Translations under genes and position numbers: made by a program
Assembly (NCBI GenBank): GCA_030699455.1
Contig: JAUYMN010000008.1
Location: 6,271 to 70,270, forward strand
Origin: Nanobdellota archaeon
GTDB taxonomy: Archaea > Nanobdellota > Nanobdellia > SCGC-AAA011-G17 > UBA489
Reading direction: 5' to 3'
Length of the DNA stretch: 64,000 bases
Notes under the pieces: generated by a model
Databases searched by the model: none
Told to the model about the DNA's origin: nothing
What the model saw: only the letters and a program-made list of their open reading frames with translations
Part shown: in pieces, positions 5,673 to 43,705 of the stretch
How the letters are laid out: every line of letters starts with the position of its first letter
Numbering within the stretch: position 1 is the first letter of the stretch

Positions 5673-5723
5673 GTATCAAGGGCGTAACCCCATTGGTTAA
5701 AAGAATATTGGGTTTGGGTTATA

Positions 5724-5732: not shown

Positions 5733-5753
5733 AATCAATTAAACCTCTAAAAT

Positions 5754-18009: not shown

Positions 18010-18070
18010 TCTAAAAGATTTCCTACTTTAATATGGAAATACTTTAAAGCTAGTTTATATTTAATTGAAA

Positions 18071-19900
18071 ATGGCGTGGTCTTTGAAAAAAAAGGATAAT
18101 TCTGAACTTAAGCCTCTGAGGTTTACTAATGGGAAAACTCAAGAAGATATTGTTGATGAGGTTATGGAAGCAATTGGGAAGGGCCATAGAGTAATATTTT
18201 TGAAAGGAATCTGTGGAAGTGGCAAAAGTGCAATTTCACTAAATATCGCAAAAGAATGTGGAAGGGCAAGTATTGTAGTGCCTGTGAAATACTTACAGGA
18301 GCAGTATAAAACAGATTACAGTGATAACATGTGTGTTATGAAAAATGGTATTCCAATGAAGATACAAAACCTTACAGGAAGAAATAACTTTGACTGCCTA
18401 TATGACGGAAATTCCAAGGCTGACGACAAGTTTTTACCATGTTCTATTGAACTAAGACAGGATAACTGGGATTTAATTAAAGCATACCTTAAGAACAACG
18501 AGGACGTTAATGTTGAAAATTTTACGGGTGTTGATGATGTCAGAAGATTGAGTGTTGCCGCTGCCTGTCCTTATTGGAGCCCCGTTATTGGCAAAGAATG
18601 GTTTGGAGATTATGGTTTAACAAGTGCAAAACAGTATACTTATACTGGGCTAAAGGGAAAGGAGTTTATAATCCATAAAAGAAAAGATGGATGCAAATAT
18701 TATGAGCAGTTTATGAGTTATTTAGACGCTGATGTTCTAATTTTTAACAGCAGAAAATATGAAATAGAAAATGCACTAGATAGGAAGCCTGCAACTGATG
18801 TTGAAATAATAGACGAATGTGATGAGTTTTTGGACAAGTTTAGTGATGAAAAGCACTTAAACTTGAATTTTATGCAGAAAAAGATTGATGAAGTTTTTAG
18901 GAGAAATACAACTCCAAGCGATGTAAAAGAAGTTTTGGGAGAGATTAATGGCATGTTAAGGGAGCTTATCGGGGCCAAATGGATGAAAAGCATGATTGAT
19001 GATGAAGAAATAATCGAGTTAAAAAATACTAAACTGAAAGATTTATTTGCCAAGATATTAACTAACGAATTTTTGATGGAATATGAGGAACTTGAGCCAT
19101 ACTATGCTTTGGCAAAGAATTTTGAAAATCTGATGGAAGATACTTATGCGGCTTTCGACCTAAATAAGAGGGAAGACATTATTGCCCATATCGTAAACAT
19201 AAATCTTAAGAGAAAATTTAACGAAATTTTGGATAAAAATAAAGTTTTTGTCATGATGTCCGGCACCTTACATAGCGATGAAGTCCTAAAAGATATCTTC
19301 GGTTTAACTGATTTTGTAGTTATTGAAGCTGAAACCGAACACAGGGGTATTGTAAGAAAAAACATAACCGGCAGAGAGAAGAACTGCAGATATAGGGATT
19401 TTCAGGAAGGAAGAATTACCAGGAAGGAATACTTGGAAATTTTGCAGGAGTGTATCATGTGCGCTGAAAAACCAATATTAATACATGTCAACAGTTATGC
19501 AGATATGCCTACTTGCGAAGAAAAAGAAAAATACAACCTAAACATCATGAGCCGTGAAAAACTGCAGGAACTGCAGGACAGATACAAGAAAGGCGAGTTG
19601 TTGCAGATGTTCAAGGATGGGAAAATTGATGTATTATACAGCACAAAATGTAACAGGGGTGTTGACCTTCCAGGTGATATGTGTAAAAGCATAATATTCA
19701 CAAAGTATCCATTTCCTGGTATGAAAGATATTTTCTGGAAAGTTTTGCAAAAAAAGAATCCTGAAGAATTCAGAAAATTTTATTTTGATAAAGCAAAAAG
19801 AGAATTTATTCAAAGAATTTACAGAGGACTTAGAAACCATGATGACATTGTTAACCTGCTAAGCCCTGACTTGAGAGTCATGAGATCAGGATTATCCTAA
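18071..19900 (+). CDS. XPD/Rad3/DinG-family helicase
   Basis: Walker A GICGSGKSA, IIDECDEF, clustered Cys (FDCLYD, LPCS, AACPYW), and a C-terminal RGVDLPG...IIFTKYPFP. Confidence 0.7.
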   Translation: MAWSLKKKDNSELKPLRFTNGKTQEDIVDEVMEAIGKGHRVIFLKGICGSGKSAISLNIAKECGRASIVVPVKYLQEQYKTDYSDNMCVMKNGIPMKIQNLTGRNNFDCLYDGNSKADDKFLPCSIELRQDNWDLIKAYLKNNEDVNVENFTGVDDVRRLSVAAACPYWSPVIGKEWFGDYGLTSAKQYTYTGLKGKEFIIHKRKDGCKYYEQFMSYLDADVLIFNSRKYEIENALDRKPATDVEIIDECDEFLDKFSDEKHLNLNFMQKKIDEVFRRNTTPSDVKEVLGEINGMLRELIGAKWMKSMIDDEEIIELKNTKLKDLFAKILTNEFLMEYEELEPYYALAKNFENLMEDTYAAFDLNKREDIIAHIVNINLKRKFNEILDKNKVFVMMSGTLHSDEVLKDIFGLTDFVVIEAETEHRGIVRKNITGREKNCRYRDFQEGRITRKEYLEILQECIMCAEKPILIHVNSYADMPTCEEKEKYNLNIMSREKLQELQDRYKKGELLQMFKDGKIDVLYSTKCNRGVDLPGDMCKSIIFTKYPFPGMKDIFWKVLQKKNPEEFRKFYFDKAKREFIQRIYRGLRNHDDIVNLLSPDLRVMRSGLS

Positions 19901-20275: not shown

Positions 20276-20625
20276 GTTAGGAGTGAATAAGCCACCTTCT
20301 GTTGGTCTTCTTTTCACGAAGATAAGAGTAGACCATTCCAACATTCAACTTAGCGTCTTAATGACTTGCACCAACCAGGGCTCGTTGTTTCATCGTTTCC
20401 TTTGCAAACGCTCGACTGGTTATCTTATTGTTTTCACAAACAATGTCAGGTATCATTACATACCCATGGCTTTTAATCCATGCAATCTCTTTGCTTAACA
20501 AACAAAGGCCGTGTTGTTTCTGGACGGTTGCCATCCATTTCTGGATCTTCTCAAAGAGAAGTGGTTTTTAATGGTGGGCGGACTTTCCTCAGTGTAAACA
20601 CCGATAGTTGGATGACACTCCTAAC
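20276..20625 (-). ncRNA. rnpB: RNase P RNA
   Basis: CR-I GAGGAAAGTCCGCCC and CR-V ACAGAAGGTGGCTTA. P4 pairing AAGUCCGCC/GGUGGCUU has the bulged U. P1 is a perfect 10 bp, GTTAGGAGTG/CACTCCTAAC. TTTTTAAA lies about 27 nt upstream. Confidence 0.8.
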
Positions 20626-20733
20626 TATTGTATTGGTTTAAACTGCTTTAAAAAGGTATTGAAAAGGTCCGTAGGACGACGCCCCTCTCTCTTTTTGTTT
20701 CTTTTTTCTAAAAAGAAAAGTAAGCAATCAAAA

Positions 20734-20832
20734 AATTGAATATAATTTCTGTTATGCTCTCCGAACGAAGTGAGAACCTGCAAGGCGTGGCAAAATCTCT
20801 TCGAGATTTTGCGTTCAGAAGGTCGCTCGGTG
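20734..20832 (+). repeat. junction-core repeat, full unit (core + hairpin + right arm)
   Basis: aattgaatataatttctGTTATGCtctccgaacgaagtgag, then a 10-bp stem gcaaaatctc/gagattttgc (20790-20812), then right arm gttcagaaggtcgctcgg. Confidence 0.7.
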
Positions 20833-20853
20833 GTGGGACGGTGCGCGTTTTAT

Positions 20854-21609
20854 TTAATATGGACTCTTCCAAAAATAATTGAAATATTTCATGAAACTTT
20901 CTTTAATTCTGTCAGATTCTAATACAAATGCAAAAGATTGTTTTCCCCACAAAATTTGTACTACTTTATTTCCAAAAATAATTGCTACCATGGGCACATA
21001 CATATCTTTTGGGAGTGAGCAATATTTATAGTAAGCTTTCTTGTGTTGGCTTATTTTTTCTGGTTCTAAATCTTTCAAATAAGTACCATAACTAACTAAA
21101 TCATTCATCATATGCTTTTTTTTAATTCTTCGTTCCATCCAATGTTCAAACCATACTTGTAAATTTTCAGGAACTGTTTTGTAGTTTTCAAAGCTATTTC
21201 CTCCTAACCAAAATGATTCTTTATGCTCAAGTATCTCTTCAAAAAGCGTTTTGATTGCCTCATTGCCCCTAAAAATTTCTGCCATTATTTCAGGTTTGGA
21301 GAGTTCAAAAAGTTTTTTTATGTCGGGAATTTGTTCTTCTAGTTCCTTTAATCTTTTCTCTTTTCCCTTTATTTCTTCAAGAAGCTTATTTGGGTGTGTG
21401 CATTGGTAAGTTCTCTTGCCTTTTTCAATAGTATAAGAAACAAGCCCTGCTTCTATTAATTTATTCAGAATGTCATAAATATTTCTTCGTTCTATTCCTG
21501 TTTTTTCTTGTATTTTGTTAATAGTGGATATGCCCAATTCTAGAACTGCCGAATAAACTTTGATCTGCCCATCGCTTAAACCTAATTCCTTCAGATTTTT
21601 AAGTATCAT
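20854..21609 (-). CDS. TrmB-family transcriptional regulator (paralog 2)
   Basis: MILKNLKELGLSDGQIKVYSAVLELG...RRNIYDILNKLIEAGLV. Start trimmed to 21609. Confidence 0.75.
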   Translation of the reverse strand: MILKNLKELGLSDGQIKVYSAVLELGISTINKIQEKTGIERRNIYDILNKLIEAGLVSYTIEKGKRTYQCTHPNKLLEEIKGKEKRLKELEEQIPDIKKLFELSKPEIMAEIFRGNEAIKTLFEEILEHKESFWLGGNSFENYKTVPENLQVWFEHWMERRIKKKHMMNDLVSYGTYLKDLEPEKISQHKKAYYKYCSLPKDMYVPMVAIIFGNKVVQILWGKQSFAFVLESDRIKESFMKYFNYFWKSPY

Positions 21610-21697
21610 ATGGTGTTGTATAATACCACATATATTTAAATATTTAGTCATATCAATACTATTAACAAGTAACAACAAATGTAAGGAGGTAATCAAA

Positions 21698-22147
21698 ATG
21701 AACATAAAAAAAATTTATGAAGCAGGCAAAAAAGGATTGGCGGGAATTGTTTTAGCAGGTACTCTCGCGTTAAATGGTTGTGTAGATCACCAAGAGCATA
21801 CAACTCAAGAATTGCCTTATTTTGCAGTTAAAAACATAGAAACAGTTTTGGCAATGGATCATGGAGAACGACCAAGACATGTAGAAAATGGTGTGGTTTA
21901 CACGCCAATGGTAAGATTTGACACTCAATTTCCACAATTGGAAGGAGTAAAAGCACAACAAGGAGATAAAACATACATTTTTCGGTCAAGCATGTATGAT
22001 GGACGTTTAACTGAAATAAGCAACACAGAAGGCGAAGCATATCTAAGAGTTGGAATGCTACCGGAAGAATTTAATTCCTTTAACGACGGAGTAGGAAAAG
22101 GTGCTGACACAAGCTATGCCAAGTTTATAGAAGAATTTAACAAATAA
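21698..22147 (+). CDS. lipobox lipoprotein, hypothetical
   Basis: MNIKKIYEAGKKGLAGIVLAGTLALNGC has a signal peptide and lipobox Cys. SD-like aaggagg upstream; divergent from TrmB paralog 2. Confidence 0.6.
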   Translation: MNIKKIYEAGKKGLAGIVLAGTLALNGCVDHQEHTTQELPYFAVKNIETVLAMDHGERPRHVENGVVYTPMVRFDTQFPQLEGVKAQQGDKTYIFRSSMYDGRLTEISNTEGEAYLRVGMLPEEFNSFNDGVGKGADTSYAKFIEEFNK

Positions 22148-22190
22148 AGATAAATTTTTATTTTTTTATTTTTTAACGCGCCGTCCACGT

Positions 22191-22207
22191 GGGGGGGGGG
22201 GGGGGGG
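22191..22207 (+). repeat. G17 homopolymer
   Basis: 17 consecutive G in an AT-rich genome, directly after the right inverted-repeat arm 22175-22188. Confidence 0.9.
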
Positions 22208-22232
22208 TTGGTAGGGAGAAGAGTGACCTTCT

Positions 22233-22378
22233 GAATTACGCCTAACCCTTGTTATACAAGGGTGAGGAGCGAAGCGACGAAAGCGTAGCGTCCCCAAGTG
22301 AGCGAAGCGAACGCAGCGTAAGGCACAGGGACACGTTCCATCAAGTGAGCACAGCGAACCATCCAGAACAAGAATCAA
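22233..22378 (+). repeat. junction-core repeat (variant) plus GC-rich iteron block
   Basis: gaattacgcctaacccttGTTATACaagggt places GTTATAC in the loop of a 6-bp stem. Two 17-mers follow: aagtgagcgaagcgaac (22296-22312) and aagtgagcacagcgaac (22343-22359). Confidence 0.65.
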
Positions 22379-22442
22379 GGGGACACTCTCTTGATGGTGC
22401 TTACACACTTGTAACTTTTTATTGAGAAAACGGGGGCAACTA
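22379..22442 (+). repeat. left arm of 64-bp perfect inverted repeat
   Basis: Exact reverse complement of 24939-25002. Includes the TAG stop of the TrmB gene. Confidence 0.95.
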
Positions 22443-23162
22443 CAATGGCTTTGCTATACCCCACATCACATTAAAATAATTTGTAAATGCTTTAGCACTA
22501 TCTTCACTTATGATTTGTATTGTAGTAATCTCTTTCTCTTGAATGATACCAATAATAACAACATCTTCATAGATCATATAACCCACTCGTGCTATAAAAC
22601 TTTTTGGTAGAACACGAATATTATCTTTTTTCATTATTGAGAGAAGATCTTTTACTTCTGGAATATTAGGCTGCACTGTTTTCATTTTCATCTTTTTTGC
22701 TTTTTGCTCAATGAATTTTCTAGAAAATTTTAATGCTTTAAAGAAAAATAATCCCCCGCCAACCCAGTAAACATTCTTATTTGATTTTACTGCTTCTTCA
22801 ACTACTGCTTTTGCACCCTCTAATCCAACAAAAACGTTGATTTTTGGTGATTTTTCTTCTGATTCATAAAAACTTTTTAGGTTTGGAAGAGCATCATTGA
22901 GAATTTTGTTTTTTTCTTCAAGAAATATCTTAAGACTTTCTGGATTTGTGGCTTGAAAGTATTTCACTCCATTTTTTATTTTGAAATTGACAATTCCTCT
23001 GCGAAGAAGTATATTTAGGTTGTCATAGATTGTTCTTCGGTGTACTTCTGTTTCTTTAGATAATTGAACAGCAGTAGATTCTTTTTTCTTAAGAAGAGCG
23101 AGGTAAATTTTTGCTTCTGTTTCTGAAAGTCCAATTTTTCTTAGTGAGTCTTGTAAATCCAT
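22440..23162 (-). CDS. TrmB-family transcriptional regulator (paralog 3)
   Basis: LRKIGLSETEAKIYLALLKKK...HRRTIYDNLNILLRRGIV. Confidence 0.8.
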   Translation of the reverse strand: MDLQDSLRKIGLSETEAKIYLALLKKKESTAVQLSKETEVHRRTIYDNLNILLRRGIVNFKIKNGVKYFQATNPESLKIFLEEKNKILNDALPNLKSFYESEEKSPKINVFVGLEGAKAVVEEAVKSNKNVYWVGGGLFFFKALKFSRKFIEQKAKKMKMKTVQPNIPEVKDLLSIMKKDNIRVLPKSFIARVGYMIYEDVVIIGIIQEKEITTIQIISEDSAKAFTNYFNVMWGIAKPL

Positions 23163-23262
23163 TCTAACATATATTATTCTTAGTTTTATTTAAACTTTTC
23201 GTTATTGGTGTGGAAATCCCCACACATTGATTTATATTCTTAAATATGACTACTAAAGAATA

Positions 23263-23940
23263 ATGAACACCCAACTAGATAATCCATTTAGAGAAGAGCA
23301 AATTGCAGAGATTTATTCTAGGCATAGCCATAAATATCATGCTCATCAAAGAGCATTTGAAGCATTTAGGACACTTATCCCTCTAGATAGCCGAGTTTTA
23401 GAAATTGGCGTAGGCACAGGTGCTTTTACAGATTTATTGCTTTCTGTTGGATATGATGTTAAAGGTATTGATAGATCAGAAAAAATGCTGAAAAGAGCCT
23501 CTGAACGAGTTCGTGCTTTATCTGAACATTGCGATTTGTTGGATCATGATTCTTCCGGAAAATATGATGTTGTGGTTTCGCATAGTGGTGGATTTACATT
23601 CAAAAGAGGAAAATTTGAGACGTATTATCAAGATGAAGACAATTTAGAGAAAGCACTTCAAAAAGTTCATAATGTTCTTGTTGATGAAGGAAGATTTCTT
23701 GTAGATAAAGGAGAACATGAATCCGAGATAGATTTAGGAGATGGAACAATATTCTCCGTAGAACAAGAAGATAGAGAAAAATCTCGGATTTATACTTATA
23801 CTTTCAAGCAAGGAGATAGAGAGATTACGAAGCAACAAAGACGTTTAGTATTTTTTCCAGAAGAATTGCAAAGAATGAGTTCTCCGTATTTTAATTGGAA
23901 TTTTGCAAATAAACTTTGGATAATTGGTGAAAGGATATGA
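23263..23940 (+). CDS. class I SAM-dependent methyltransferase
   Basis: VLEIGVGTGAFT motif I and DVVVSH. Confidence 0.8.
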   Translation: MNTQLDNPFREEQIAEIYSRHSHKYHAHQRAFEAFRTLIPLDSRVLEIGVGTGAFTDLLLSVGYDVKGIDRSEKMLKRASERVRALSEHCDLLDHDSSGKYDVVVSHSGGFTFKRGKFETYYQDEDNLEKALQKVHNVLVDEGRFLVDKGEHESEIDLGDGTIFSVEQEDREKSRIYTYTFKQGDREITKQQRRLVFFPEELQRMSSPYFNWNFANKLWIIGERI

Positions 23941-24941
23941 TGAATCAATTAAGACAATCATTAAGAGAATTTAAGAGTGATTTTGATAGAAAAATTGTCG
24001 CATATTTTGATGCAAAAATTGGTGAACAAGCAAATCCGGAGTTGAAAGAAGTTTTTGGTCATCTGAAAGATTATGTTTTAGCAGGGGGGAAACGTCTTAG
24101 ACCGAATATTCTTTACAGAATAAATCAAGAATTCAAACAATTAGATGGAATTGATAATGTTCTTCTTGCTTTTGAGTTTCTTCATAATTCTACGTTAATT
24201 GATGATGATGTGATAGATGAACATGATACAAGAAGAAGCAGAGCAACTCTTCCAACAGTTTATGGTGATAGAAATTATAGAGGAGATTTTGCTGCTTTGT
24301 TAAGCGCTAACTTACTAAGAAATGCAGGAATTGATTTAATTGTAAATTCAGAATTATCAAGAGATTTTCAAAGAGAATGTGGGTTGGCGTATCAAGACAT
24401 AGGAAGAAGCATAGATTTAGCACAAATTCTCGATTTAGAATATAGGGGAAGATTGAATTTATTAGAAGAAGATTATATTGCTCAAGCAGATTTAGTGGCA
24501 GCAAGATTTATCGCTTATATGTTTCAACTCTGCACACCTGAAAAATACAAAGAAGAATTTTATCAAGTAGGAAGAAATTTAGGGATTGCATTTCAGTTAG
24601 CAGATGATTTAATGGATATAGATGCAACAAAGCAGAAAGGTCGTGGTCTTGGCTCAGATATTAGAGAAGGAACACCAACATTATTATCAATTTATGCTTC
24701 AGAAAGATTAGAGGGTGTAGATAGAGAAAAGTTTAGAGGATTATTTGGCAAAAAAGATTTAACAGAGGATGAATTACAATGGATTATTACTCAATATGAA
24801 AACAGTGCAGTCATAGAAGATTCAAGAGAAAGAGTTAGAGATTACATTAATAGAGCAAATCACATTTTATCAGATGTGGGAATTCCTCAAGATCATTGGA
24901 TAGTCGCATTTGGTGAGTATAGTTTACAGCGATCTCATTAG
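23937..24941 (+). CDS. polyprenyl (trans-isoprenyl) diphosphate synthase
   Basis: First DDxxD (LIDDDVID) and second DDxxD (LADDLMD). ATGA overlap with the methyltransferase gene. Confidence 0.85.
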   Translation: MMNQLRQSLREFKSDFDRKIVAYFDAKIGEQANPELKEVFGHLKDYVLAGGKRLRPNILYRINQEFKQLDGIDNVLLAFEFLHNSTLIDDDVIDEHDTRRSRATLPTVYGDRNYRGDFAALLSANLLRNAGIDLIVNSELSRDFQRECGLAYQDIGRSIDLAQILDLEYRGRLNLLEEDYIAQADLVAARFIAYMFQLCTPEKYKEEFYQVGRNLGIAFQLADDLMDIDATKQKGRGLGSDIREGTPTLLSIYASERLEGVDREKFRGLFGKKDLTEDELQWIITQYENSAVIEDSRERVRDYINRANHILSDVGIPQDHWIVAFGEYSLQRSH

Positions 24942-25002
24942 TTGCCCCCGTTTTCTCAATAAAAAGTTACAAGTGTGTAAGCACCATCAAGAGAGTGTCC
25001 CC
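24939..25002 (+). repeat. right arm of 64-bp perfect inverted repeat
   Basis: Exact reverse complement of 22379-22442. Includes the TAG stop of the prenyl synthase gene. Confidence 0.95.
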
Positions 25003-25027
25003 CATCATTTTTAGTGTCCCGAGTAAT

Positions 25028-25130
25028 ATGTCGTATAATCGCTGTTAAACTCCCCGAACGGAACGAAGTGAGGTGAAAGCGCAACGTGGTCGACCGAAGG
25101 GAGAGGTTCGGTGCTCGCCGAAAGTTTGTT
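25028..25130 (+). repeat. junction-core repeat, full unit without payload
   Basis: atgtcgtataatcgctGTTAAACtccccgaacggaacgaagtgag. ccgaac pairs with gttcgg and aaac with gttt. Ends at the next GTTATAG (25131). Confidence 0.65.
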
Positions 25131-25200
25131 GTTATAGTAGTTGTTGAAAAATATATTATTAACTTTCAAGTAGTAAAAGAAACGAAAGATTTATAAAGTA
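25117..25200 (+). repeat. cassette 5' flank repeat A, copy 1
   Basis: About 90 percent identical by eye to 30709-30792. Contains TTGTTGAAAAATA, AACGAAAGAT and the TTTATAAAG TATA box. Identity stops 3 nt after the TATA box. Confidence 0.85.
25190..25198 (+). promoter_or_regulatory. TATA box (TTTATAAAG)
   Basis: About 25 nt upstream of the ATG at 25219. Confidence 0.5.
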
Positions 25201-25218
25201 TAGCAAATAACTATCAAT

Positions 25219-25605
25219 ATGAAAATGAATAAAACTTTAACTAGCATCGTTTTGGCAGGAGCTTTAGCTCTTAGTGGCTGTAGTGGAAAAGTCGACGATT
25301 CTAGATATGATTTCAAGGGAAAACTTGGAGATGAACAGGTAGAATTTATACGACAAGGCAATTTTTTGGTCTCCTCTGTAGATGATGGGTTATATTTAAC
25401 AGTTACAAAAGCAGATGGAAAAACTATAACTTATATCGACAGAGGAAATGATTTGAAACTAGATGAAGTAATAATCGGATACGAAGTTTATATAAATGAT
25501 GCTGTTGGACAAAACGCATTAGAATTGGCACAACAACAATTTGATGGTTATTTGACAAAAATTCTTGAATATAAACAGCAAAAAGCTGTTGATGCAATCA
25601 AGTAA
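25219..25605 (+). CDS. lipobox lipoprotein, hypothetical
   Basis: MKMNKTLTSIVLAGALALSGC has a signal peptide and lipobox. Confidence 0.6.
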   Translation: MKMNKTLTSIVLAGALALSGCSGKVDDSRYDFKGKLGDEQVEFIRQGNFLVSSVDDGLYLTVTKADGKTITYIDRGNDLKLDEVIIGYEVYINDAVGQNALELAQQQFDGYLTKILEYKQQKAVDAIK

Positions 25606-25763
25606 ATCTTTCGTTCTATAATTTTTATTTTTCAACAATTTCATTAAAATTTTGTTAGGCAAAGTTACGAAGTAATTTTGTGAAAGTTTTCTGTTATGAT
25701 TTTAACGAAGATAACAACATTAGAATTTTTGGTTTTAACCTCTGTGAGGCGAGCCCCGAATTG
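25606..25763 (+). repeat. cassette 3' flank repeat B, copy 1
   Basis: Starts immediately after the stop codon and is near-identical to 31127-31283. ATCTTTCGTT and TATTTTTCAACAA are inverted copies of elements in repeat A. Contains a degenerate core at 25693. Confidence 0.85.
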
Positions 25764-25856
25764 AACTTAATGCCTGTTATATTCTTGAACGGAACGAAGT
25801 GTAATGAGACGAGCAAAGCGAAGAGTTTTGCGTTAGCAAGATTGTACATAATCGCT
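25759..25856 (+). repeat. junction-core repeat, full unit without payload
   Basis: aattgaacttaatgcctGTTATATtcttgaacggaacgaagtg, hairpin gcaaa/tttgc, and right arm gcgttagcaagattgtacataatcgct abutting the next GTTATAT. Confidence 0.65.
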
Positions 25857-25921
25857 GTTATATTCTTCGAATGAAATGAGGCCAAAATCTGAAGGATTTT
25901 GAGTTTCTGATGGCACAAATT
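25841..25921 (+). repeat. junction-core repeat, left arm of the hicBA cassette
   Basis: attgtacataatcgctGTTATATtcttcgaatgaaatgag, hairpin caaaatc/gattttg (25883-25901), then the left inverted-repeat arm tttctgatggcacaaatt (25904-25921). Confidence 0.65.
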
Positions 25922-25929
25922 ATATAAAT
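25921..25929 (+). promoter_or_regulatory. TATA box (TATATAAAT) for hicB
   Basis: About 26 nt upstream of the ATG at 25951, directly after the left inverted-repeat arm. Confidence 0.45.
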
Positions 25930-25950
25930 CATTACATATGGAATAATATT

Positions 25951-26163
25951 ATGAAATATAGAATAACAATGGAACAAGACGAAAAAGGCATTTATGTTGT
26001 AGAATGTCCAATTCTTCCTGGATGTATATCTGAAGGTTTAACTAGAAAGGAGGCCTTAGATAATATTAAAGATGCTATTAAAGGATATATAGACAGTCTA
26101 AAAAAGCATAATGAGCCAATACCTCTATCAATTGATGAGGAAATGGTGGAAGTAAATGCCTAA
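25951..26163 (+). CDS. hicB: HicB-family antitoxin
   Basis: 70 aa, YVVECPILPGCISEGLTRKEALDNIKDAI (UPF0150/HicB fold pattern). Overlaps the hicA start. Confidence 0.8.
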   Translation: MKYRITMEQDEKGIYVVECPILPGCISEGLTRKEALDNIKDAIKGYIDSLKKHNEPIPLSIDEEMVEVNA

Positions 26164-26385
26164 ACTTCTTTCGAATCTTTCTGGCTTAAAACTTGTAAAA
26201 TTATTTTCTAAATTAGATTATGAATAGATCATCAAACCGGCAGTCATATAATATTAAGACAGAATAAATATCCATTTAGAAGGTTAACTATACCAAAACA
26301 TAAGTCACTAGCAAAAGGCACATTAAGAGCAATTATAAAACAATCTGGACTAACAAAAGAGGAATTTTTAAAGTTTCTAACCTAA
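26156..26385 (+). pseudogene. hicA: hicA toxin, frameshifted
   Basis: MPKLLSNLSGLKLVKLFSKLDYE then TAG at 26225. The homologous remainder (GSHIILRQ...TIPKHKSLAKGTLRAIIKQSGLTKEEFLKFL) continues in the -1 frame from 26224 to 26385. Confidence 0.7.
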
Positions 26386-26459
26386 TTGTGCCATCAGAAA
26401 TTGTACATAACTTCTGCTATATTGTCTGGGGTTTATCCCCAGATTAACCCGTTAGGGTT
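26384..26459 (+). repeat. right arm of the hicBA cassette plus degenerate junction core
   Basis: aattgtgccatcagaaa is the inverted partner of 25904-25921. Then ttgtacataacttctGCTATAT, hairpin tctgggg/ccccaga (26425-26443), and aacccGTTAgggtt. Confidence 0.6.
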
Positions 26460-26661
26460 GAAGTATGACGCAAGAACCAACATTAAGGAGTTTTGAACAA
26501 ATTGACCGTAACTGATTAGCTGGCGAGACTAAGCCACAGTTGCTAATAGGTTGCCTTTCATAATGGGATGCTGTATGGCTTCAGAAAATTACAAGAGAAG
26601 CTATTGAAGGGAATAAGGAGAAAAGTACGAAGCCGAGATTGATTTAGACATCATCTTTTGG

Positions 26662-27588
26662 CTAATTCCATTTGAGCATCTCATTATAAAATGCTTCTGC
26701 TTGTTTTTGATCAAATTTATCTGGGTCTCCTAAACACCTTGTTTCAACAAAATTCTTGTTCTCATCGTAAATGTTCCATATAACATACTTGTAGGTCTTT
26801 CCTATATCTCCAGTTTCAGAAATTATTGTTTTTTCAATGTATGCATTAACATTGCCCATTCCAAAGAAATAAGTGTAACCTCCGCAGTAGTACTTGTTAA
26901 GGTTTTCACCTTCTTTAGTTCCCTTTCTACAATTAGCAGATCCTTTTATTGTCCATCCATCATAAGTTTTCCCACTTATATCTGTGGTTTCATAAGGTGT
27001 TCCTTCATTGTGAAATTTCATTTCCACATTAATCTGTGGGCAATTAGATTTAAGGGTTTTTGAAAATTTCTCAGTACCTTTTTTGAATATACCTTCAAAC
27101 TGGTTATTTGATTTTGTTGTCAGATTGGTTTCAAAATTAGAACTACTCCCATAATGAATTTCTTGTTGATCTGAATTGTGTATCAGGTATAATGTAATTG
27201 CAATCACAAAAATCCACAAAAATAAATTTGAATGATCCATTCTAGATATCCTTACAAGATATGCTACCAAAACCAGTCCAACAGCTGTAAAGATAATGCT
27301 TGCCACATAATCAATAATTCCAAGATAATTAGCAAGAATAAATAGCACCCATATCGCACCAGTATTTATTACTCCCCAAAACAAAAAGGATTTGTCAACA
27401 ATAAATTTTTGTTTTGTAGTAAATATCTTTGCAAATTTTGCTAATATTGTTAATCCAAAACCCATAAAAATCAGCTGAAAGAAACTGTTCTCAATGTTTA
27501 AGTAATTTAAGAGATAACCCAAAACATACAATGAAATAGAGTGAATGACAATCCAAATTAAAGACCATTTCAAACTAAAGTTTTTCAT
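26662..27588 (-). CDS. membrane protein with extracytoplasmic C-terminal domain, hypothetical
   Basis: 308 aa with about 5 N-terminal TM helices, then a soluble Cys-containing domain. Confidence 0.5.
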   Translation of the reverse strand: MKNFSLKWSLIWIVIHSISLYVLGYLLNYLNIENSFFQLIFMGFGLTILAKFAKIFTTKQKFIVDKSFLFWGVINTGAIWVLFILANYLGIIDYVASIIFTAVGLVLVAYLVRISRMDHSNLFLWIFVIAITLYLIHNSDQQEIHYGSSSNFETNLTTKSNNQFEGIFKKGTEKFSKTLKSNCPQINVEMKFHNEGTPYETTDISGKTYDGWTIKGSANCRKGTKEGENLNKYYCGGYTYFFGMGNVNAYIEKTIISETGDIGKTYKYVIWNIYDENKNFVETRCLGDPDKFDQKQAEAFYNEMLKWN

Positions 27589-27960
27589 TTTTGTTGCGTT
27601 TCATATTCTGGAATTCTTCTTTTCACTTGCTTCCGCCCACATGAACCCAATTTTTTTTGAAGATAGAAATCATCTTTTCTCTAGCTCCATAATCTGTCTT
27701 AATTAAGAGATATAAAAAGTTTGTCTATGGATATTTTGCAAAGTTAAAGAATGGTATCACCTTTTTTCTTAAGAAAAAGAGTGGAAATGGGAGCAAACTC
27801 CTAAAAGGAGGTACCCACCATGAATGGCATTTGAGACAGCAAATGCCATTCAAGAGATATAACAATTATTACTAGTAAATTATTCCGTTCACATGATTTC
27901 TAAGTTTTATTCTATCCATAATGCCAAAATTGATAGGACGTTCGTACTTCAATGTATGTA

Positions 27961-28509
27961 TCAAGTAAAAATTTCCATAATTTTTTCAATAGAAATTTCT
28001 TGGTTAATTATGGATAAAAGAATTATTAAAAAAATAATAACAATGATTGATAGAATTATTTTTGATGCTATGGTTTTTCTTTCATATTTTTCTTCATTCG
28101 GCTGGTTTTTTTGTTCTATAGTTGGTGTTGGTTTTATGTAATCTCCTTTTTTAAATTTCTTAGTAAATTTTTCAATATCCCTATCCAATTGTTCATTCTT
28201 AAATTTTTTTTCTATTGATACTTTTTTTCTTCTGTTTTTTATTTTATTTATTCTGCCATAATCTCCATTGCATCCATGTTCTTCTGGAAGTCTGCAATTT
28301 TCACAATGAGATTCATCACAGTAATTACACACAAAAGGTATATGATTTATTTCTTTTTCACAAGAATCACACTTATTTTTAGGTCTTGGTTTTCTTCTCC
28401 GCCCCATTCTTCTTTGGTTCCAAGCATGTTCATCAAAATCCTCTTCTTCATACTCTTCCCTATCATTCTCATCTTCTTCTCTATCCCATCTCTTAGAAAA
28501 AGTTCCCAT
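27961..28509 (-). CDS. AN1-like zinc-finger protein with C-terminal membrane anchor
   Basis: CDSCEKEINHIPFVCNYCDESHCENCRLPEEHGC is close to the AN1 pattern. Charged N-terminus and a C-terminal TM. Confidence 0.55.
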   Translation of the reverse strand: MGTFSKRWDREEDENDREEYEEEDFDEHAWNQRRMGRRRKPRPKNKCDSCEKEINHIPFVCNYCDESHCENCRLPEEHGCNGDYGRINKIKNRRKKVSIEKKFKNEQLDRDIEKFTKKFKKGDYIKPTPTIEQKNQPNEEKYERKTIASKIILSIIVIIFLIILLSIINQEISIEKIMEIFT

Positions 28510-28511
28510 TT

Positions 28512-29252
28512 TCAGCAGAAATTTTGTGTTACGTAGATATCATACCAATTTCCTTCTGAACTCTCAAGAACAGAAACTCCAATTCCATGGTTCCTATGGT
28601 GGGGAGTAAGTATATTTTCTCTATGTCCTGGGCTACTCATCCAACCATTGACTATATTTTCGGCTACTTCTCCCATTGTACAAGGATGGGAATGAGTAGC
28701 ACCTACAACGATCAGTTCTCTAGTGATGTCATAATAATCCAATGCAAGATTCTCAGCTCCCTCGGATAAATAGGTTTCGTATTGTTGTGTAGTAATTTCA
28801 TAAATGCCATATTCACCTTCTTCTATCTCAGTTTCTTCTGGATAGTATATTGTATCGATTGGAACTGAACAATAATAATTTGCTTGTTTGTATCTATAGT
28901 CAAATCTATTTCCTTCAAGATCTTCATGTTCAAAATGTTTGTTTTTGGCCATATAGTCACTATACTTTCTTGCAATTTGGTTTAATTCTTCATCCCATTT
29001 TAACATATTAAGTTTGGCATTCTTTCTTTCAACCCTTACCTTCCTATGTATCAACAATTCTAATTCTTCAACATTGATATCTTCACATTGAATATTGCTT
29101 TCAAAAGAGTTGGTTTCATCTTTATAGCTTTCTGTGCTAATATCATCAAAATCCAAAAAATAAATACCTACCAAAAAAATAGAACCAATAACTAAAAGTG
29201 GAATAATCCGGCTTGTTGGAATTATAACTAAAAAGCCTTTCTTTCTATACAT
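28512..29252 (-). CDS. CAP/SCP/PR-1-like domain protein, membrane-anchored
   Basis: N-terminal TM, with KWDEELNQIARKYSDYM, GAENLA and NGWMSSPGHRENIL motifs. Confidence 0.75.
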   Translation of the reverse strand: MYRKKGFLVIIPTSRIIPLLVIGSIFLVGIYFLDFDDISTESYKDETNSFESNIQCEDINVEELELLIHRKVRVERKNAKLNMLKWDEELNQIARKYSDYMAKNKHFEHEDLEGNRFDYRYKQANYYCSVPIDTIYYPEETEIEEGEYGIYEITTQQYETYLSEGAENLALDYYDITRELIVVGATHSHPCTMGEVAENIVNGWMSSPGHRENILTPHHRNHGIGVSVLESSEGNWYDIYVTQNFC

Positions 29253-29475
29253 TCTGCCATTGACGGGATATAGGTCTCTTTTAAATTTTTAGGTCCTGGG
29301 TAACTGATTAGCTACTTTTGAAACGGAGTTCAATTCAGCCTTCTTTTGTAGAATTTTTGTATTATACGGACAAAAAGGATGTTAAATTAGCCTCTATTTG
29401 ACATAGCTAATCAGTTACAATTGACCAAAAGATTTAAATATGTGTAATCACATTTCTACACATAGGTGATCAAAA

Positions 29476-29700
29476 ATGACTAATTTAACATTAGCAATTC
29501 CAGAAGATTTGCATGAAAAAATGAAACATCACTCTGAAATAAGATGGAGTGAAGTAGTGAGAAAATCAATCTCTCAGAAGATTGAATTATTAGATGCAAT
29601 GAATAAAATTGCAAGTAAAAGTAAGTTAACAAAGAAAGATGTAGATGAAATCTCAAAGAAAATTAAAGCAGAAACATTTGATGAGTTAAACAAAAAATGA
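29476..29700 (+). CDS. vapB: VapB-like antitoxin (ribbon-helix-helix-like)
   Basis: 74 aa, LTLAIPEDLHEKMK N-terminus. ATGA overlap with the PIN gene. SD-like GGTGAT upstream. Confidence 0.6.
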   Translation: MTNLTLAIPEDLHEKMKHHSEIRWSEVVRKSISQKIELLDAMNKIASKSKLTKKDVDEISKKIKAETFDELNKK

Positions 29701-30116
29701 TCATCATTATTGATGTTAATGTTTTTCTTTCTGCTTTAATTAAGGATTCAACTTCAAGAGAAATTTTGTTAACATACGAGCAAGAATTTTGTTTTCCAGA
29801 GAGATCATTGCAGAAAATACGAAAGCATAAATCTCTTATTCAAAAGAAGTCTGAACTTTCTGATTTAGATTTTCTGAAGTTGTTTCATTCTTTATTAAAG
29901 TTTATCAGAATCATTCCTGATGAAGAATTATTAGATCAATGGGATGAAGCGATGAAAATAATGGCACACATTGATGAAGAAGATGTGACTTTTATTGCAG
30001 CAGCATTGAGTCAGAATAATGCAGTAATCTGGTCTGATGATAAGCATTTTGAGAAACAGGATAAAGTGTTTACACTAAAAACAAAAGATTTGGTCAATTT
30101 ATTTGAGAATAACTAA
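29697..30116 (+). CDS. vapC: PIN-domain toxin
   Basis: IIIDVNVFLSALI N-terminal acidic residue, EEDVTFIAAA, and WSDDKHF. Confidence 0.75.
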   Translation: MIIIIDVNVFLSALIKDSTSREILLTYEQEFCFPERSLQKIRKHKSLIQKKSELSDLDFLKLFHSLLKFIRIIPDEELLDQWDEAMKIMAHIDEEDVTFIAAALSQNNAVIWSDDKHFEKQDKVFTLKTKDLVNLFENN

Positions 30117-30156
30117 TTTCAAAACGCCTCTCTTTTCTTTGTTGGTTCTGAGTAAT

Positions 30157-30235
30157 ATTCAATATAATGCCTGTTATGTTCTCCGAACGAAGTGAGGACA
30201 AGCGAACGAAGTGAGTGAAGAGTTCAAAAAAGACT
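30157..30235 (+). repeat. junction-core repeat with duplicated iteron
   Basis: attcaatataatgcctGTTATGTtctccgaacgaagtgag. cgaacgaagtgag occurs twice (30184-30196, 30203-30215). Then the left inverted-repeat arm ttcaaaaaagact (30223-30235). Confidence 0.65.
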
Positions 30236-30280
30236 TTCTATGTGGTAATATATCTCAAAAGATATAAACTCCTTAAAAAT

Positions 30281-30595
30281 TTATCTTGGAGAATAAGGTA
30301 ATTGTGGGACAGAATATCGTGTTTTAAATTCTCTATTTATTCTTTCGATCTTGTTATGAATGTACTCCATTTGACCATATAGCCGACAATCTGCGATACA
30401 GTTCTCTTTACCACCACTATCTTGAAACGATTGGTGTGCTTCTTTGAAATCATTATCTAACATTTCTATAAGGGCGTCTAAACCATGGGCTGATATTTTA
30501 TGTTTCATAACTACTAATAAGTTACAAATTATATATAAATCTAACGGTTTTTCTATGGTTCTGACGGGCTTTCTCATGATAATTGAGCTTATCAT
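30281..30595 (-). CDS. hypothetical protein
   Basis: 104-aa ORF bracketed by the 13-bp inverted repeat 30223-30235/30604-30616. On the minus strand, ATTATATTC from the core lies about 27 nt upstream of the start. Confidence 0.4.
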   Translation of the reverse strand: MISSIIMRKPVRTIEKPLDLYIICNLLVVMKHKISAHGLDALIEMLDNDFKEAHQSFQDSGGKENCIADCRLYGQMEYIHNKIERINREFKTRYSVPQLPYSPR

Positions 30596-30614
30596 GATGC
30601 TACAGTCTTTTTTG

Positions 30615-30722
30615 AATTGAATATAATTTCTGTTAGTTTCTCCGAATGAAATGAGAACGAGATTTTAGTGCAACGATGCTGAAGGCAAAAATCTCGAGTT
30701 CTGGGCTTGCCGAAAATTCGTT
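30615..30722 (+). repeat. junction-core repeat, full unit without payload
   Basis: aattgaatataatttctGTTAGTTtctccgaatgaaatgag. Stem cgagatttt (30658-30666) / aaaatctcg (30688-30696) with loop agtgcaacg... and an extrahelical ag. Right arm gcttgccgaaaattcgtt. Confidence 0.7.
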
Positions 30723-30792
30723 GTTATTGTAGTTGTTGAAAAATAAGTTATTAACTCTCAAGTGGTAAAAGAAACGAAAGATTTATAAAGTA
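30709..30792 (+). repeat. cassette 5' flank repeat A, copy 2
   Basis: Partner of 25117-25200. Confidence 0.85.
30782..30790 (+). promoter_or_regulatory. TATA box (TTTATAAAG)
   Basis: About 29 nt upstream of the ATG at 30815. Confidence 0.5.
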
Positions 30793-30814
30793 ATTAGTTT
30801 TCGTAAGTATTACA

Positions 30815-31126
30815 ATGAAACTATATCAAAAAATTGCAACATATACATTTATTGGTGCTGCAAGTTTAGGATTATTTGGTTGTGATAAAAAAGATTCACA
30901 ACGAGCAACTGAACAACCATTACCAGCTGAAATGAGAACATATGAAGTTAGCCCATATGTATTTGGTAAATCTAAAATTAATTATGACCATTTACCAAAT
31001 CTAGGATGGTCGGACATGATTGGGGTAACTTGCGGAGATTTAGATGGTGATGGAGATTTAGAAGTGATTGTTGCAACAAAAGATGGATTAACAATTTACG
31101 AAAACAGAACAGAACAAAAAAGATAA
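30815..31126 (+). CDS. lipobox lipoprotein with FG-GAP-like repeat
   Basis: IGAASLGLFGC signal and lipobox-like Cys, plus CGDLDGDGDLEVIVATKDG. Confidence 0.6.
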   Translation: MKLYQKIATYTFIGAASLGLFGCDKKDSQRATEQPLPAEMRTYEVSPYVFGKSKINYDHLPNLGWSDMIGVTCGDLDGDGDLEVIVATKDGLTIYENRTEQKR

Positions 31127-31283
31127 ATTCTTTCGTTCTATAATTTTTATTTTTCAACAATTTCTTTAAATTTTTGTTAGACAAAGTTACGAAGTAATTT
31201 TGTGAGTTTTCTTTTATGATTTTAACGAAGATAACAACATTAGAATTTTTGGTTTTAACCTCTGTGAGGTGAGCCCCGAATTG
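31127..31283 (+). repeat. cassette 3' flank repeat B, copy 2
   Basis: Partner of 25606-25763. Similarity ends at gagccccgaattg, the last recognisable array sequence. Confidence 0.85.
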
Positions 31284-31478
31284 TGTTGAACAATATATAT
31301 GCGAAGAAGCACGAATTCCTATATTTTAGACGTTATGAAGGCATTATTTGGAAGATTGAGTTAGAAAAACTGTTTTCTTTTATGTGTAGTAAAAACAACT
31401 TATTTTTGACTTTTAACCGCATTTTCTTCGATTTTTTTGAATTAAGTTTTTTTAAGAGTTTATAGTAACTGGTTTTAA

Positions 31479-32184
31479 TGGCTTTGGATGTGCTTTATAA
31501 CATGAAAAGAGAGTTGTTTAGGAGGAAGCTGTCTCCAAGAACTGTTAAAACATACCTGCTGTATGTTAGATTATTTCTTCGAGCAAATAAAGACATCAAG
31601 AAACTCGCGAATCTGCTTTAGGCTTCTTCGCAGTATTTACTACAATTCTTGATTAAATCTAACCATCAATTCTCACTTAAGTCTTTTTTATCAACCGCCA
31701 TCATAACTTTCATAAAATCATTAGGAACCAGAAGTTTATCAAACATAGATGACGTTAACTTTACAGCTGGTGAAAAGGCTTAAATAATTTTGCGGGATGG
31801 ATTGAGTACACTGAAGCGCTACAATAATGGTCTACTCAATTTTAATCTTTATGGGAGAAGAAATTCAGAATCAATACACTAGTGGGGTATGAACTTAAAA
31901 TTATTGCTAAAGGCAATGCGCCTGGAATTTGACAGGTTAATTCTACAACATATGCTCCTGACGAAATTGCAGTTTCTGCCATGAAGTATGTTTAAGATGC
32001 TATTGAAAATGATGGAGCATTAATGAGGCAGTCTGATAGAATTACTACAATAGACAGGCCTATGATTAAAATTGTTTGCTCTGATAGTTACACATTAGTG
32101 CACCCAGCAACTATTGAAGATATGTTAAAGTACAGAAGAGGGCATGGGACAATGGCAAGAAAGCTGGCTCCATCAAGACCATAA
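31479..32184 (+). pseudogene. tyrosine recombinase/integrase, heavily decayed
   Basis: N-terminal SAM-like domain signature KLSPRTVKTYLLYVRLFL, then an in-frame TAG at 31620-31622. The frame continues (FLIKSNHQFSLKSFLSTAIITFIKSLG) to a TAA at 31782. Downstream fragments in shifted frames resemble catalytic-domain blocks (LLNFNLYGRRNSES; LKIIAKGNAPG; RRGHGTMA). No ORF of 60 aa or more across 31.47-32.19 kb. Confidence 0.6.
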
Positions 32185-32189
32185 CAGGC

Positions 32190-32963
32190 TTAAACAAATT
32201 CTATGAATAACAGGAGATACATAATTGCTATGCCTAATAAAAATATTGACAATTCTGATAATGATTGTGTAATGCCTTTGTCTTTATGCAGATGTATCTG
32301 CGGTATTAAATCAGATGCAGCTATGTAAATAAATCCTCCAGATGTTATTGGTATAAGATAATTCGGCAGTGATGATAAATTTGAGCTTAATAACAAAGTT
32401 ATGACTGCTCCTAAAATTGCGGTCAATGCTGTTATAAAATTAAGAAATACTGCTCTTGTTTTTTTAAAGCCTGCATGCAATAATACTCCAAAATCTCCAA
32501 TTTCCTGCGGTATTTCGTGCAATATGACTGCTATTGTTGTTGCAATTCCAAGAGGAACGCTTACTATGAAACTTCCTGCAATCAATATTCCATCAATAAA
32601 ATTGTGCAATGAATCTCCAACAAGGTTCATTATGGCGTATGAAGGTGTTTGTTTTTTGTGATGGTGCAAGTGACAATGCCCCCAATGAACAAATTTTTCT
32701 AATATGAAAAATATTATGATCCCCAATAAAATAAATAATGAAATATTTAGTGTAAATCCTGATTCTGCTGCTTCAGGGATTAAGTGTATGAATGCATCTC
32801 CAAGCATAACTCCTGCTGAAAGACTTACTAATAAAATTATTGTCTTATCTAGATGATTTTTTTTGAATGAAATGCTTGCAAGACCAACAAGGGAAATTAA
32901 GCTTACTATAATCACGCTTAGTAAGGTATACCCCCAAATGTTCACCTCTTGAATACCAAACAT
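32190..32963 (-). CDS. ZIP-family metal transporter
   Basis: HNFIDG, HEIPQEIGDFG, a His-rich loop HCHLHHHK, and multiple TMs. Confidence 0.85.
   Translation of the reverse strand: MFGIQEVNIWGYTLLSVIIVSLISLVGLASISFKKNHLDKTIILLVSLSAGVMLGDAFIHLIPEAAESGFTLNISLFILLGIIIFFILEKFVHWGHCHLHHHKKQTPSYAIMNLVGDSLHNFIDGILIAGSFIVSVPLGIATTIAVILHEIPQEIGDFGVLLHAGFKKTRAVFLNFITALTAILGAVITLLLSSNLSSLPNYLIPITSGGFIYIAASDLIPQIHLHKDKGITQSLSELSIFLLGIAIMYLLLFIEFV

Positions 32964-43670: not shown

Positions 43671-43705
<35 letters not shown>

Follow-up and report, generated by a model that had tools for sequence, protein, structure and literature searches.

In the 64-kb window analysed here (positions 6,271 to 70,270 of contig JAUYMN010000008.1, from a Nanobdellota archaeon with a G+C content of roughly 33%), about 11.5 kb of accessory genes separate the RNase P RNA gene (rnpB) from a ZIP transporter gene. 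The modules of this island, none of which encodes a recombinase, are all bounded by co-oriented 28-bp sites of two classes: A-sites, which recur along the island, and a single terminal B-site, followed by the remnant of a gene for an XerA-type tyrosine recombinase (xerA). The island is probably a decayed XerA-dependent cassette array, built by XerA-driven capture of modules. Recurrence of this arrangement with intact xerA genes in related archaea suggests an undescribed way of collecting accessory genes. No prior description was found in the searchable literature on archaeal integrative mobile elements exploiting Xer (IMEX), on Xer modules, or on DPANN tyrosine recombinases with dif sites.

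A previous interpretation of this DNA from its letters only (the sequence-only reading) had noticed a recurring core between the modules, and our searches confirmed the core and the positions of its copies. The 5' core pattern ATTGNAYATAANNNCTGTTA, with at most two mismatches, matched seven times in the window (0.28 expected), a number reached by none of 100 shuffles, and the 17-mer TCTCCGAACGAAGTGAG matched four times (0.03 expected). Core copies start at 20735, 22233 (variant), 25028, 25760, 25841, 26400 (degenerate), 30157, and 30616, with additional copies at 5325 and 5574 and a weak one at 6312, all on the + strand. The junction DNA was also found to be GC-richer, as had been described (0.53–0.58 versus about 0.33). 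In contrast, the 'half copies' reported at 25131, 25693, and 30723 are not sites; they fall inside two paralogous module flanks (25106–25200 matching 30698–30792, and 25604–25763 matching 31126–31283).

The A-site can be parsed as an 11-6-11 structure, ATTGnAyATAA-TnnCTG-TTAnnnTCTCC, in which the right arm is weaker, inverted, and runs into a hairpin. Several A-sites of the window remain near this consensus. A-site 1 (20735–20762) reads ATTGAATATAA TTTCTG TTATGCTCTCC (position weight matrix score of 37.3, for a shuffle maximum of 20), A-site 3 (25028–25055) reads ATGTCGTATAA TCGCTG TTAAACTCCCC (score of 27.2), A-site 7 (30157–30184) reads ATTCAATATAA TGCCTG TTATGTTCTCC, and A-site 8 (30616–30643) reads ATTGAATATAA TTTCTG TTAGTTTCTCC. 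In A-site 5 (25841–25868; ATTGTACATAA TCGCTG TTATATTCTTC), the right arm reads GAAGAATATAA when reverse-complemented and agrees with the left-arm consensus ATTGAATATAA in 8 of its 11 bases. A-site 4 (25760–25787) heads an empty 81-nt unit (25760–25840), and A-site 6 (26400–26427; ATTGTACATAA CTTCTG CTATATTGTCT) is degenerate. A-site 2 (22233–22260; ATTACGCCTAA CCCTTG TTATACAAGGG), whose spacer and right arm form the hairpin ACCCTTG/CAAGGGT, belongs to a variant class also present at L008:4603, L016:2587, and L031:567 (L-numbers designate comparative loci, which are all contigs of metagenome-assembled genomes (MAGs) or metagenomes). A second mini-array (5325–6339, + strand), which has no recombinase gene, comprises a variant A-site (5325–5352), a 42-aa open reading frame (ORF), an A-site (5574–5601), a 174-aa ORF, and a weak site (6312–6339). 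The other ~51 kb of the window contained no sites according to the weight matrix and a covariance model. The dif site of Pyrococcus abyssi validated in vitro is ATTGGATATAA TCGGCC TTATATCTAAA (PMC2958812). As single in-register comparisons, the left-arm consensus of the A-sites matches the dif arm ATTGGATATAA at 10 of 11 positions (p ~6e-5) and the whole A-site matches dif at 18 of 28 positions (p 3e-4).

The series of sites ends close to 31283, as the sequence-only reading had stated, but with a site of a different type. This terminal, recombinase-proximal B-site (31280–31307, + strand; ATTGTGTTGAA CAATAT ATATGCGAAGA) is degenerate, matching 20 of the 28 positions of the B consensus ATTGnnTATAA CAACAT ATATACGCATT, the arms of which are nearly perfect inverted repeats. 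The xerA remnant (31484–31663, + strand) begins 204 nt further and retains the first ~58 codons, with an in-frame stop (62% tblastn identity to the N-terminus of the L019 XerA, E 8e-7; weak match to Phage_int_SAM_4). The decayed tyrosine recombinase previously placed at 31479–32184, pointing away from the array, is thus real for these ~58 codons only: no similarity was detectable downstream of the remnant as far as 32184. With xerA dead, the B-site degenerate, and hicA frameshifted, the window copy is decayed. The truncation of xerA and the degeneracy of the B-site make the array a fossil unless XerA acts in trans.

Searching 185,579 species genomes (one genome per species) with the strict 28-nt pattern retrieved 19 loci, 18 of which belonged to MAGs of Woesearchaeota, Pacearchaeota, or other DPANN archaea; viral contigs provided zero matches. 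The weight matrix revealed looser sites beside the strict matches, always co-oriented (five in 1.5 kb in L006, five in 4.3 kb in L020, and four in 0.9 kb in L021), and two complete genomes each had one strict match surrounded by looser co-oriented copies. An XerA-type tyrosine recombinase of 268–279 aa is also encoded in five of the 18 DPANN blocks, none of which exceeds 8 kb (chance p ~5e-7); its gene lies close by on the right-hand side of the sites and shares their orientation. The best family for the intact recombinases was NCBIfam recomb_XerA_Arch (NF040815; 216–233 bits for a cut-off of 220) and their top PDB matches were the XerA structures 5HXY and 4A8E (E ~1e-41). The B-site occurs once per locus, 175–242 nt upstream of the xerA start (L004, L009, L016, L019/L037, L031, L038, L039, L040, L049, L050, L051, and the window); L036 has its copy inverted, just downstream of xerA. 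In long contigs (426–857 kb), A-sites were detected only upstream of xerA (five in L049, four or five in L050, and two in L051), with none in the 10 kb downstream. The position of the B-site and the confinement of A-sites to the upstream side define a conserved layout, [A-site + module]n, B-site, ~200 nt, xerA, which is found with an intact xerA in at least 12 other Woesearchaeota or Pacearchaeota loci. The sequence-only reading had described a cassette-style array of accessory modules beside an outward-pointing recombinase, and conservation of this architecture in related genomes supports that description. Two further motifs may be accessory or promoter elements of the platform: GTCCGTAGGACGACGCCCC, present ahead of the first A-site of the array in the window (20666–20684) as well as in L009 (909–927), and a conserved G-rich motif (TTTGGGGTTTTGAGGG-like) present after the B-site in many loci.

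Exact-protein look-ups with the window island matched only fragments of sample SRR13727534, and no strain-level polymorphism of the island was seen. Logan contigs L047 and L048, which reach the ends of the window, had no A-sites and no recombinase among their called genes. Because no close strains were available for the island, cassette polymorphism is demonstrated in another pair of loci, L016 and L031, which encode XerA proteins that are 88% identical. The empty platform of L031 has the structure X-ATTGTATATAA/CTGTTT/ATATACGCAGT-xerA, whereas the occupied platform of L016 has the structure X-ATTGTATATAA/TTCCTG/TTATGCTCTCC-[1.68 kb]-ATTGAATATAA/CTGTTT/ATATACGCATT-xerA. The 1.68-kb insert at the B-site consists of two lipoprotein genes (two modules) and an inner A-site. 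Identity between the two loci is 96% over the 200 nt on the left, the halves of the sites are reciprocally exchanged, and no target-site duplication was found at the junction. The crossover lies between position 5 of the left arm and position 1 of the spacer, the spacer moving with the right arm. A second module common to L016 and L031 (96% identity) begins exactly at the spacer, with different left arms and left neighbours. Tyrosine recombinases cut at the arm/spacer border. Judged from these sequences, the difference between L016 and L031 bears the signature of a conservative top-strand exchange by a tyrosine recombinase at the left-arm/spacer border. Presence/absence polymorphism at the core, which the sequence-only reading had proposed to look for, is therefore found in this pair rather than in the window island, and its breakpoint is at the left-arm/spacer border instead of the GTTA box.

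According to blastn, the inter-gene units are the only DNA common to the window and the fetched site-bearing loci. Positions 30615–30792 are 95% identical to positions 962–1139 of L009, and 31123–31249 are 88% identical to 1380–1504, with no alignable coding DNA between the window and L009; this identity of module flanks points to horizontal spread. Three modules (at 25028 and 30616 in the window and at 963 in L009) have in common a 5' flank, from the A-site through a structured element to a TATA box, and a 3' flank, from the stop codon up to the following ATTG (25028–25200 and 30616–30792, 25604–25763 and 31126–31283 in the window; 963–1544 in L009). Homology ends just after the TATA box and restarts at the stop codon, and the enclosed ORFs are unrelated (128-aa and 103-aa lipoproteins and a 74-aa membrane protein). 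Comparison of these modules implies that ORFs were probably replaced inside a fixed promoter/terminator frame. Empty units of 81–120 nt, made up almost entirely of the structured element, also occur in tandem (window 25760–25840, L006, L021, and L050, the latter with three identical 87-nt units).

The right flank of many A-sites is structured. A hairpin, H1, starts at core positions 24–28, and H1 stems of at least 5 bp were found in 30% of the units versus 14% of shuffled controls, no shuffle attaining the observed value. In one subfamily only, H1 is followed by a 9-bp stem that surrounds the invariant TTTAGTGCAAC and a hairpin of the CCGAAGG type, as at 30644–30700 (+ strand) and in a second copy at 5602–5665 (covariance-model scores of 91.5 and 89.9 bits). 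Covariation supports this fold, with 94.4% of the cells paired and 26 cells changed on both sides versus 9.5 in shuffles; controls in which partners were slid by a few columns scored far lower. The covariance model produced 53 matches in 347 kb, co-oriented within each locus, except for one inverted match found later in L049. CGAAG occurs 47 times on the top strand of the flanks and twice on the bottom strand, and GCGAAGC/CCGAAGG-type motifs occur 24 and 0 times, respectively. This asymmetry points to a function of the top strand as single-stranded DNA or RNA, and the strand-biased hairpin element keeps open an integron-like single-strand mechanism. C-GAA-G is not known as a signature of common RNA loops. 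GCGAAGC is a classic, extraordinarily stable DNA mini-hairpin with a C-GAA-G closing signature (PMC13037366). Searches of Rfam at gathering and E-value thresholds matched no family to the units, either in the window or in five related loci. A tRNA or split-tRNA reading was excluded, the window containing a single tRNA-Ala, and no motifs of K-turns, C/D-box or H/ACA RNAs, or ribozymes were recognised in the flank by inspection.

Housekeeping content had been proposed to stop at rnpB and to resume at the ZIP gene, and comparison with relatives confirmed these limits. The closest relatives of the window are Woesearchaeota-type genomes, with an identity of merely 69% for tyrosyl-tRNA synthetase (TyrRS). 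The gene order helicase, rnpB(−), ZIP(−), TyrRS(+) is kept in three sets of relatives (L022; L025–27; L028–30). In L022 and L028, 35–36 nt separate the 5' end of rnpB from the ZIP stop codon, which the rnpB promoter (TTTAAAWAGGTRT) directly abuts. In the window, rnpB occupies 20276–20625 on the minus strand, the same promoter (ending in TTTAAAAAGGTAT) stops at 20659, and ZIP restarts at ~32197 with a changed C-terminus (...IEFV* versus ...IE* in relatives). The adjacency of rnpB and ZIP in relatives therefore identifies the interval 20660–32197 as a true insertion of ~11.5 kb, exactly at that junction. The 63 kb of syntenic relatives contained neither the repeat, as searched with the covariance model, nor an xerA gene. 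A search by eye for att-like repeats at the ends of the island and for a pseudo-site at the rnpB–ZIP junction yielded nothing convincing. The same junction of L025 carries an unrelated 642-nt hicBA insertion (8510–9150; the pair is also present in L026 and L027), which has at its left edge a brief, imperfect copy of the 3' end of ZIP (CTATTGAGCTTAGAAT versus TTATTCCAAGAAT); insertions may recur at this junction as a hot spot. The flanking helicase contains an intein with a LAGLIDADG domain in L025/L026 (2633–5812), in contrast to its orthologue in the window (18065–19900).

In the mechanism that we propose, XerA acting on the conserved left arm would exchange the top strand at the left-arm/spacer border, between the A-site of a module and either the B-site or another A-site. 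A module inserted next to xerA would then have a spacer and right arm on its 5' end and a left arm on its 3' end. The exchange would be limited to a single strand and resolved by replication, rather than proceed to a full double exchange; since the A and B spacers differ, this route appears more likely, by analogy with the CTX phage and integron cassettes. Subsequent unequal exchange between A-sites would duplicate, delete, or reorder modules, which would bring their own promoters and could face either way.

Several observations weigh against a XerA-driven array. XerA is the presumed catalyst on the grounds of genetic linkage and of the position of the breakpoints. In the window, xerA is dead and no intact copy was detected in the 64 kb by motif search or tblastn, so that the paralog envisaged by the sequence-only reading was not found there. 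Clusters of A-sites also exist with no xerA nearby (window 5.3–6.3 kb; L020). A classical two-strand exchange would be blocked by the lack of relation between the A and B spacers. The empty units of 81–120 nt are too small for insertion as circular duplexes; unequal A × A exchange involving sister chromosomes would offer a simple route to them instead. A purely double-strand site model does not predict the covariation and the 47:2 strand bias of the flanks. The 18/28 match to the P. abyssi dif site is no better than those obtained by scanning shuffled windows (18–21/28); the likeness was therefore rejected as scan evidence, only the in-register comparison being kept, and the resemblance is a lead and not a proof. 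The rnpB–ZIP junction of relatives has no site, leaving the arrival of the island unaccounted for. Finally, repeats may mis-order modules in assemblies of metagenomic origin, and contigs often end at A-site units, which fits repeat-induced or population-level heterogeneity and limits the certainty on module order.

The sequence-only reading had compared the layout to that of an integron or a cluster of attC sites lacking an integrase (CALIN). If the array were a divergent form of either, the repeats would be attC sites that an IntI-type integrase recombines in folded, single-stranded form. Integrons are present in archaeal MAGs, Nanoarchaeota included (PMC9668308), and this explanation accommodates a cassette array adjoining a tyrosine recombinase, a G/TTA motif resembling the R-box GTTRRRY, and strand-biased hairpins hinting at a single-stranded stage. 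The recombinases even have an IntI-like C-terminal ...SPLD tail, with the integron integrase family TIGR02249 as second-best match. However, they score 201–208 bits against TIGR02249, under the cut-off of 265, and their alignment with IntI4 (2A3V) splits (query residues 10–170 and 194–271 versus chain residues 12–175 and 240–317, with ~40 residues missing), which shows that the array-linked recombinases lack the IntI-specific insertion. The sites are 28-bp cores with inverted arms; as already suspected, they do not fit the canonical R''...R' geometry, the inverted partner of TTAT being 6 nt away and not 60–120 nt. Folding six units as single-stranded DNA on both strands revealed no unit-spanning hairpin (z-scores of −2.1 to +0.9). 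Genes are present in both directions with their own promoters, xerA is co-oriented with and downstream of the sites instead of divergent at the attI end, and the breakpoint is at the left-arm/spacer border and not at G/TT. The island thus departs from integrons and CALINs in each defining feature tested, namely the recombinase family, the IntI insertion, the site geometry, and the promoterless cassettes. We regard membership as extremely unlikely, and the evidence favours the fallback of the same reading, a different cassette system. It is improbable, too, that the units are a generic intergenic repeat of the type of miniature inverted-repeat transposable elements (MITEs), repetitive extragenic palindromes (REPs), or palindrome-associated transposable elements (PATE-like), mobilised by a transposase encoded elsewhere and accumulating in accessory regions. 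The units are indeed short, hairpin-rich, and multi-copy, with empty copies in tandem; some clusters lack xerA, and contigs often break at them. The sequence-only reading had itself raised the prospect of a repeat evenly spread in the genome, but none was found in the other ~51 kb of the window or in the 63 kb of syntenic relatives. The units were co-oriented in every multi-hit locus of the first covariance-model search (the inverted L049 match came later), and they have no target-site duplications, no terminal inverted repeats, and no array-associated transposase. The gene-bearing 1.68-kb segment of L016, with its reciprocal half-site exchange, speaks for conservative site-specific recombination.

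The covarying structure of the right flank, its invariant loop TTTAGTGCAAC, its strand bias, and the TATA-like ATATAA of the core would all be expected of genes for small structured non-coding RNAs, or of cis-regulatory RNAs, with the AT-rich core as promoter or 5' end and the clustering with xerA as incidental. In that case, however, the TATA at core positions 5–12 would place the start near position 35, downstream of the 5' strand of the covarying H1 (24–28), and the promoters of local genes differ (TTTATAAAG); the core was rejected as an archaeal promoter on these grounds. Matches to Rfam are lacking, C-GAA-G is typical of stable DNA mini-hairpins, and the B-site, the polarity relative to xerA, and the exchange of site halves between L016 and L031 are left unexplained, so that we judge this possibility quite improbable. 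Appreciable weight, although clearly less than an even share, goes to an ordinary chromosomal dif/xerA locus at which IMEX accumulated passively with no dedicated capture, the window copy being translocated or redundant. A dif site lies beside the recombinase gene in the single-recombinase XerS and XerH systems. The XerA proteins score at or near the equivalog threshold, there is one B-site per xerA, and bacteria are known to have IMEX arrays at dif (PMC4246890). This alternative differs from a XerA-dependent cassette array mainly in emphasis. However, IMEX are typically several-kb phages or plasmids, in contrast to the single-gene or empty units observed here in numbers of up to 8 or more; 'expression-vector' flanks are common to unrelated ORFs; and the window island is present where relatives have no site.

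The cargo of the cassette array comprises two TrmB-like regulators, three lipobox proteins (LNGC, LSGC, and LFGC), HicB with a frameshifted hicA, a PIN-domain toxin with a small upstream ORF, a methyltransferase and a polyprenyl synthase, a trio of CAP, zf-AN1, and membrane proteins, and one orphan ORF. The small self-contained modules described by the sequence-only reading thus have the gene content that it listed, except that hicA is frameshifted. Cargo genes are located on both strands, with TTTATAAAG-type promoters inside modules. Module 1 (20854–22147) contains a TrmB-like gene (20854–21651, −) and a lipoprotein gene (21698–22147, +). The GC-rich junction after the latter has a run of 17 G (22191–22207) preceded by the motif CGCGCCGTCCAC, which is also present in reverse complement after the TrmB-like gene (20836–20850); this may be a shared element of gene 3' ends or a sequencing poly-G artefact. 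Module 2 (22379–25002) contains a second TrmB-like gene (22440–23162, −) and the methyltransferase (23263–23940) and polyprenyl synthase (23937–24941) genes. It is bracketed by a perfect 64-nt inverted repeat (22379–22442 and 24939–25002), whose two copies start precisely where the outward-facing TrmB-like and polyprenyl-synthase genes have their stop codons and enclose a 2.5-kb three-gene unit. The independent Logan contig L002 falls within the bracketed segment, which could be an invertible or transposed segment; the repeat could also be an artefact of assembly or a 3' element common to the two genes. The two TrmB-like genes of the island and a third one (4490–5233), immediately to the left of the mini-array, each end within 100–200 nt of an A-site, which may be a coincidence or may identify them as frequent cargo or partners of arrays.

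Module 3 (25219–25605, +) encodes the 128-aa lipoprotein, with flanks common to module 8 and L009, and module 5 (25951–26386, +) encodes HicB (25951–26163) and HicA (26156–26386, frameshifted near 26222). Module 6 (26662–30116) contains the genes for the membrane, zf-AN1, and CAP proteins (all −) and the small ORF and PIN toxin gene (29476–30116, +). The motif GTAACTGATTAGCT is present three times (26508; 29298, +; 29404–29418, −), two copies forming a 35-nt inverted repeat (29280–29314 and 29404–29438) in the interval that separates the small ORF preceding the PIN gene from the divergently oriented CAP gene, possibly an operator. Module 7 (30281–30595, −) consists of the orphan ORF and module 8 (30815–31126) encodes the 103-aa lipoprotein. 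Elsewhere in the window, the 23S gene (large subunit rRNA, 41218–44819, −) is ~600 nt longer than the Rfam model owing to an AT-rich insert with an ORF of 161 aa (42246–42731, −) containing a LAGLIDADG-like motif (…WISGFVDGEGCF…). The insert is probably an rRNA intron encoding a homing endonuclease. There is no small subunit rRNA gene next to this gene within the window.

DPANN archaea combine very small genomes with an obligate symbiotic way of life and contain few mobile elements that can be recognised, and how they gain or exchange accessory genes such as those for surface lipoproteins, toxin-antitoxin pairs, and regulators is poorly understood. We tentatively advance, as a hypothesis somewhat less probable than not, that Woesearchaeota and Pacearchaeota possess a dedicated integron-like XerA capture platform, with the B-site by xerA, cassette-borne A-sites, and a strand-specific hairpin that participates in single-strand exchange. 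If so, this platform would add a third cassette system of independent evolutionary origin to integrons and pdif modules and would be a main route of accessory-gene flow in these genome-reduced archaea. Housekeeping Xer machinery would then have been co-opted for gene capture in archaea as in bacteria, and the platform could be an evolutionary intermediate between Xer/dif and integrons, because IntI is a Xer relative. In practical terms, 28-bp A- and B-sites and a 270-aa recombinase form a compact, experimentally tractable recombination system, and the site models offer an annotation handle for the hypervariable regions that fragment DPANN assemblies.

On our best reading, the system works like integrons, with a primary site, cassette-borne sites, and polar growth, like IMEX, and like pdif modules, and is a member of none of these groups. 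Integrons (PMC9668308) similarly have a recombinase gene by a primary site (the B-site being the counterpart of attI) and a second, cassette-borne class of sites (the A-sites being the counterpart of attC), with insertion at the recombinase-proximal site, clusters devoid of recombinase comparable to CALINs, and a probable single-strand exchange. They differ in that their cassettes are mostly promoterless, co-oriented, and read from Pc, whereas the modules described here have their own promoters in either orientation. The XerA-type recombinase has no IntI insertion and is encoded downstream of and co-oriented with the sites, which are 28-bp double-strand cores and not folded attC, with the crossover at the arm/spacer border. 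IMEX (the CTX, TLC, and VGJ phages and the gonococcal island; PMC4246890, PMC9226527) also lack their own recombinase, integrate at a Xer site, and form tandem stacks with direct, dif-like hybrid sites in which one arm is degenerate. Their one-strand exchange tolerates spacer heterology, and empty and occupied alleles have breakpoints inside the site, as is the case for L031 versus L016. They depend on bacterial XerC/XerD rather than on a single archaeal XerA, and they differ from the single-gene or empty 81–120-nt modules and from the conserved flanks around unrelated ORFs.

The pdif modules of Acinetobacter (PMC11705084, PMC12907356) contain one or two genes, including toxin-antitoxin pairs, between 28-bp Xer sites and are shuffled between replicons. 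Their sites are inverted (alternating C/D and D/C) and mostly plasmid-borne, in contrast to the sites reported here, which are direct, chromosomal, polar towards xerA, and divided into two classes, A and B. Archaeal XerA/dif (P. abyssi; PMC2958812, PMC3646895) shares with the DPANN arrays the recombinase family, the 11-6-11 geometry, and 10 of the 11 positions of the left arm. Canonical dif is nevertheless a single site at the terminus, which in Thermococcales is not adjacent to xerA, whereas the arrays combine many sites and their cargo with one site adjoining the recombinase gene.

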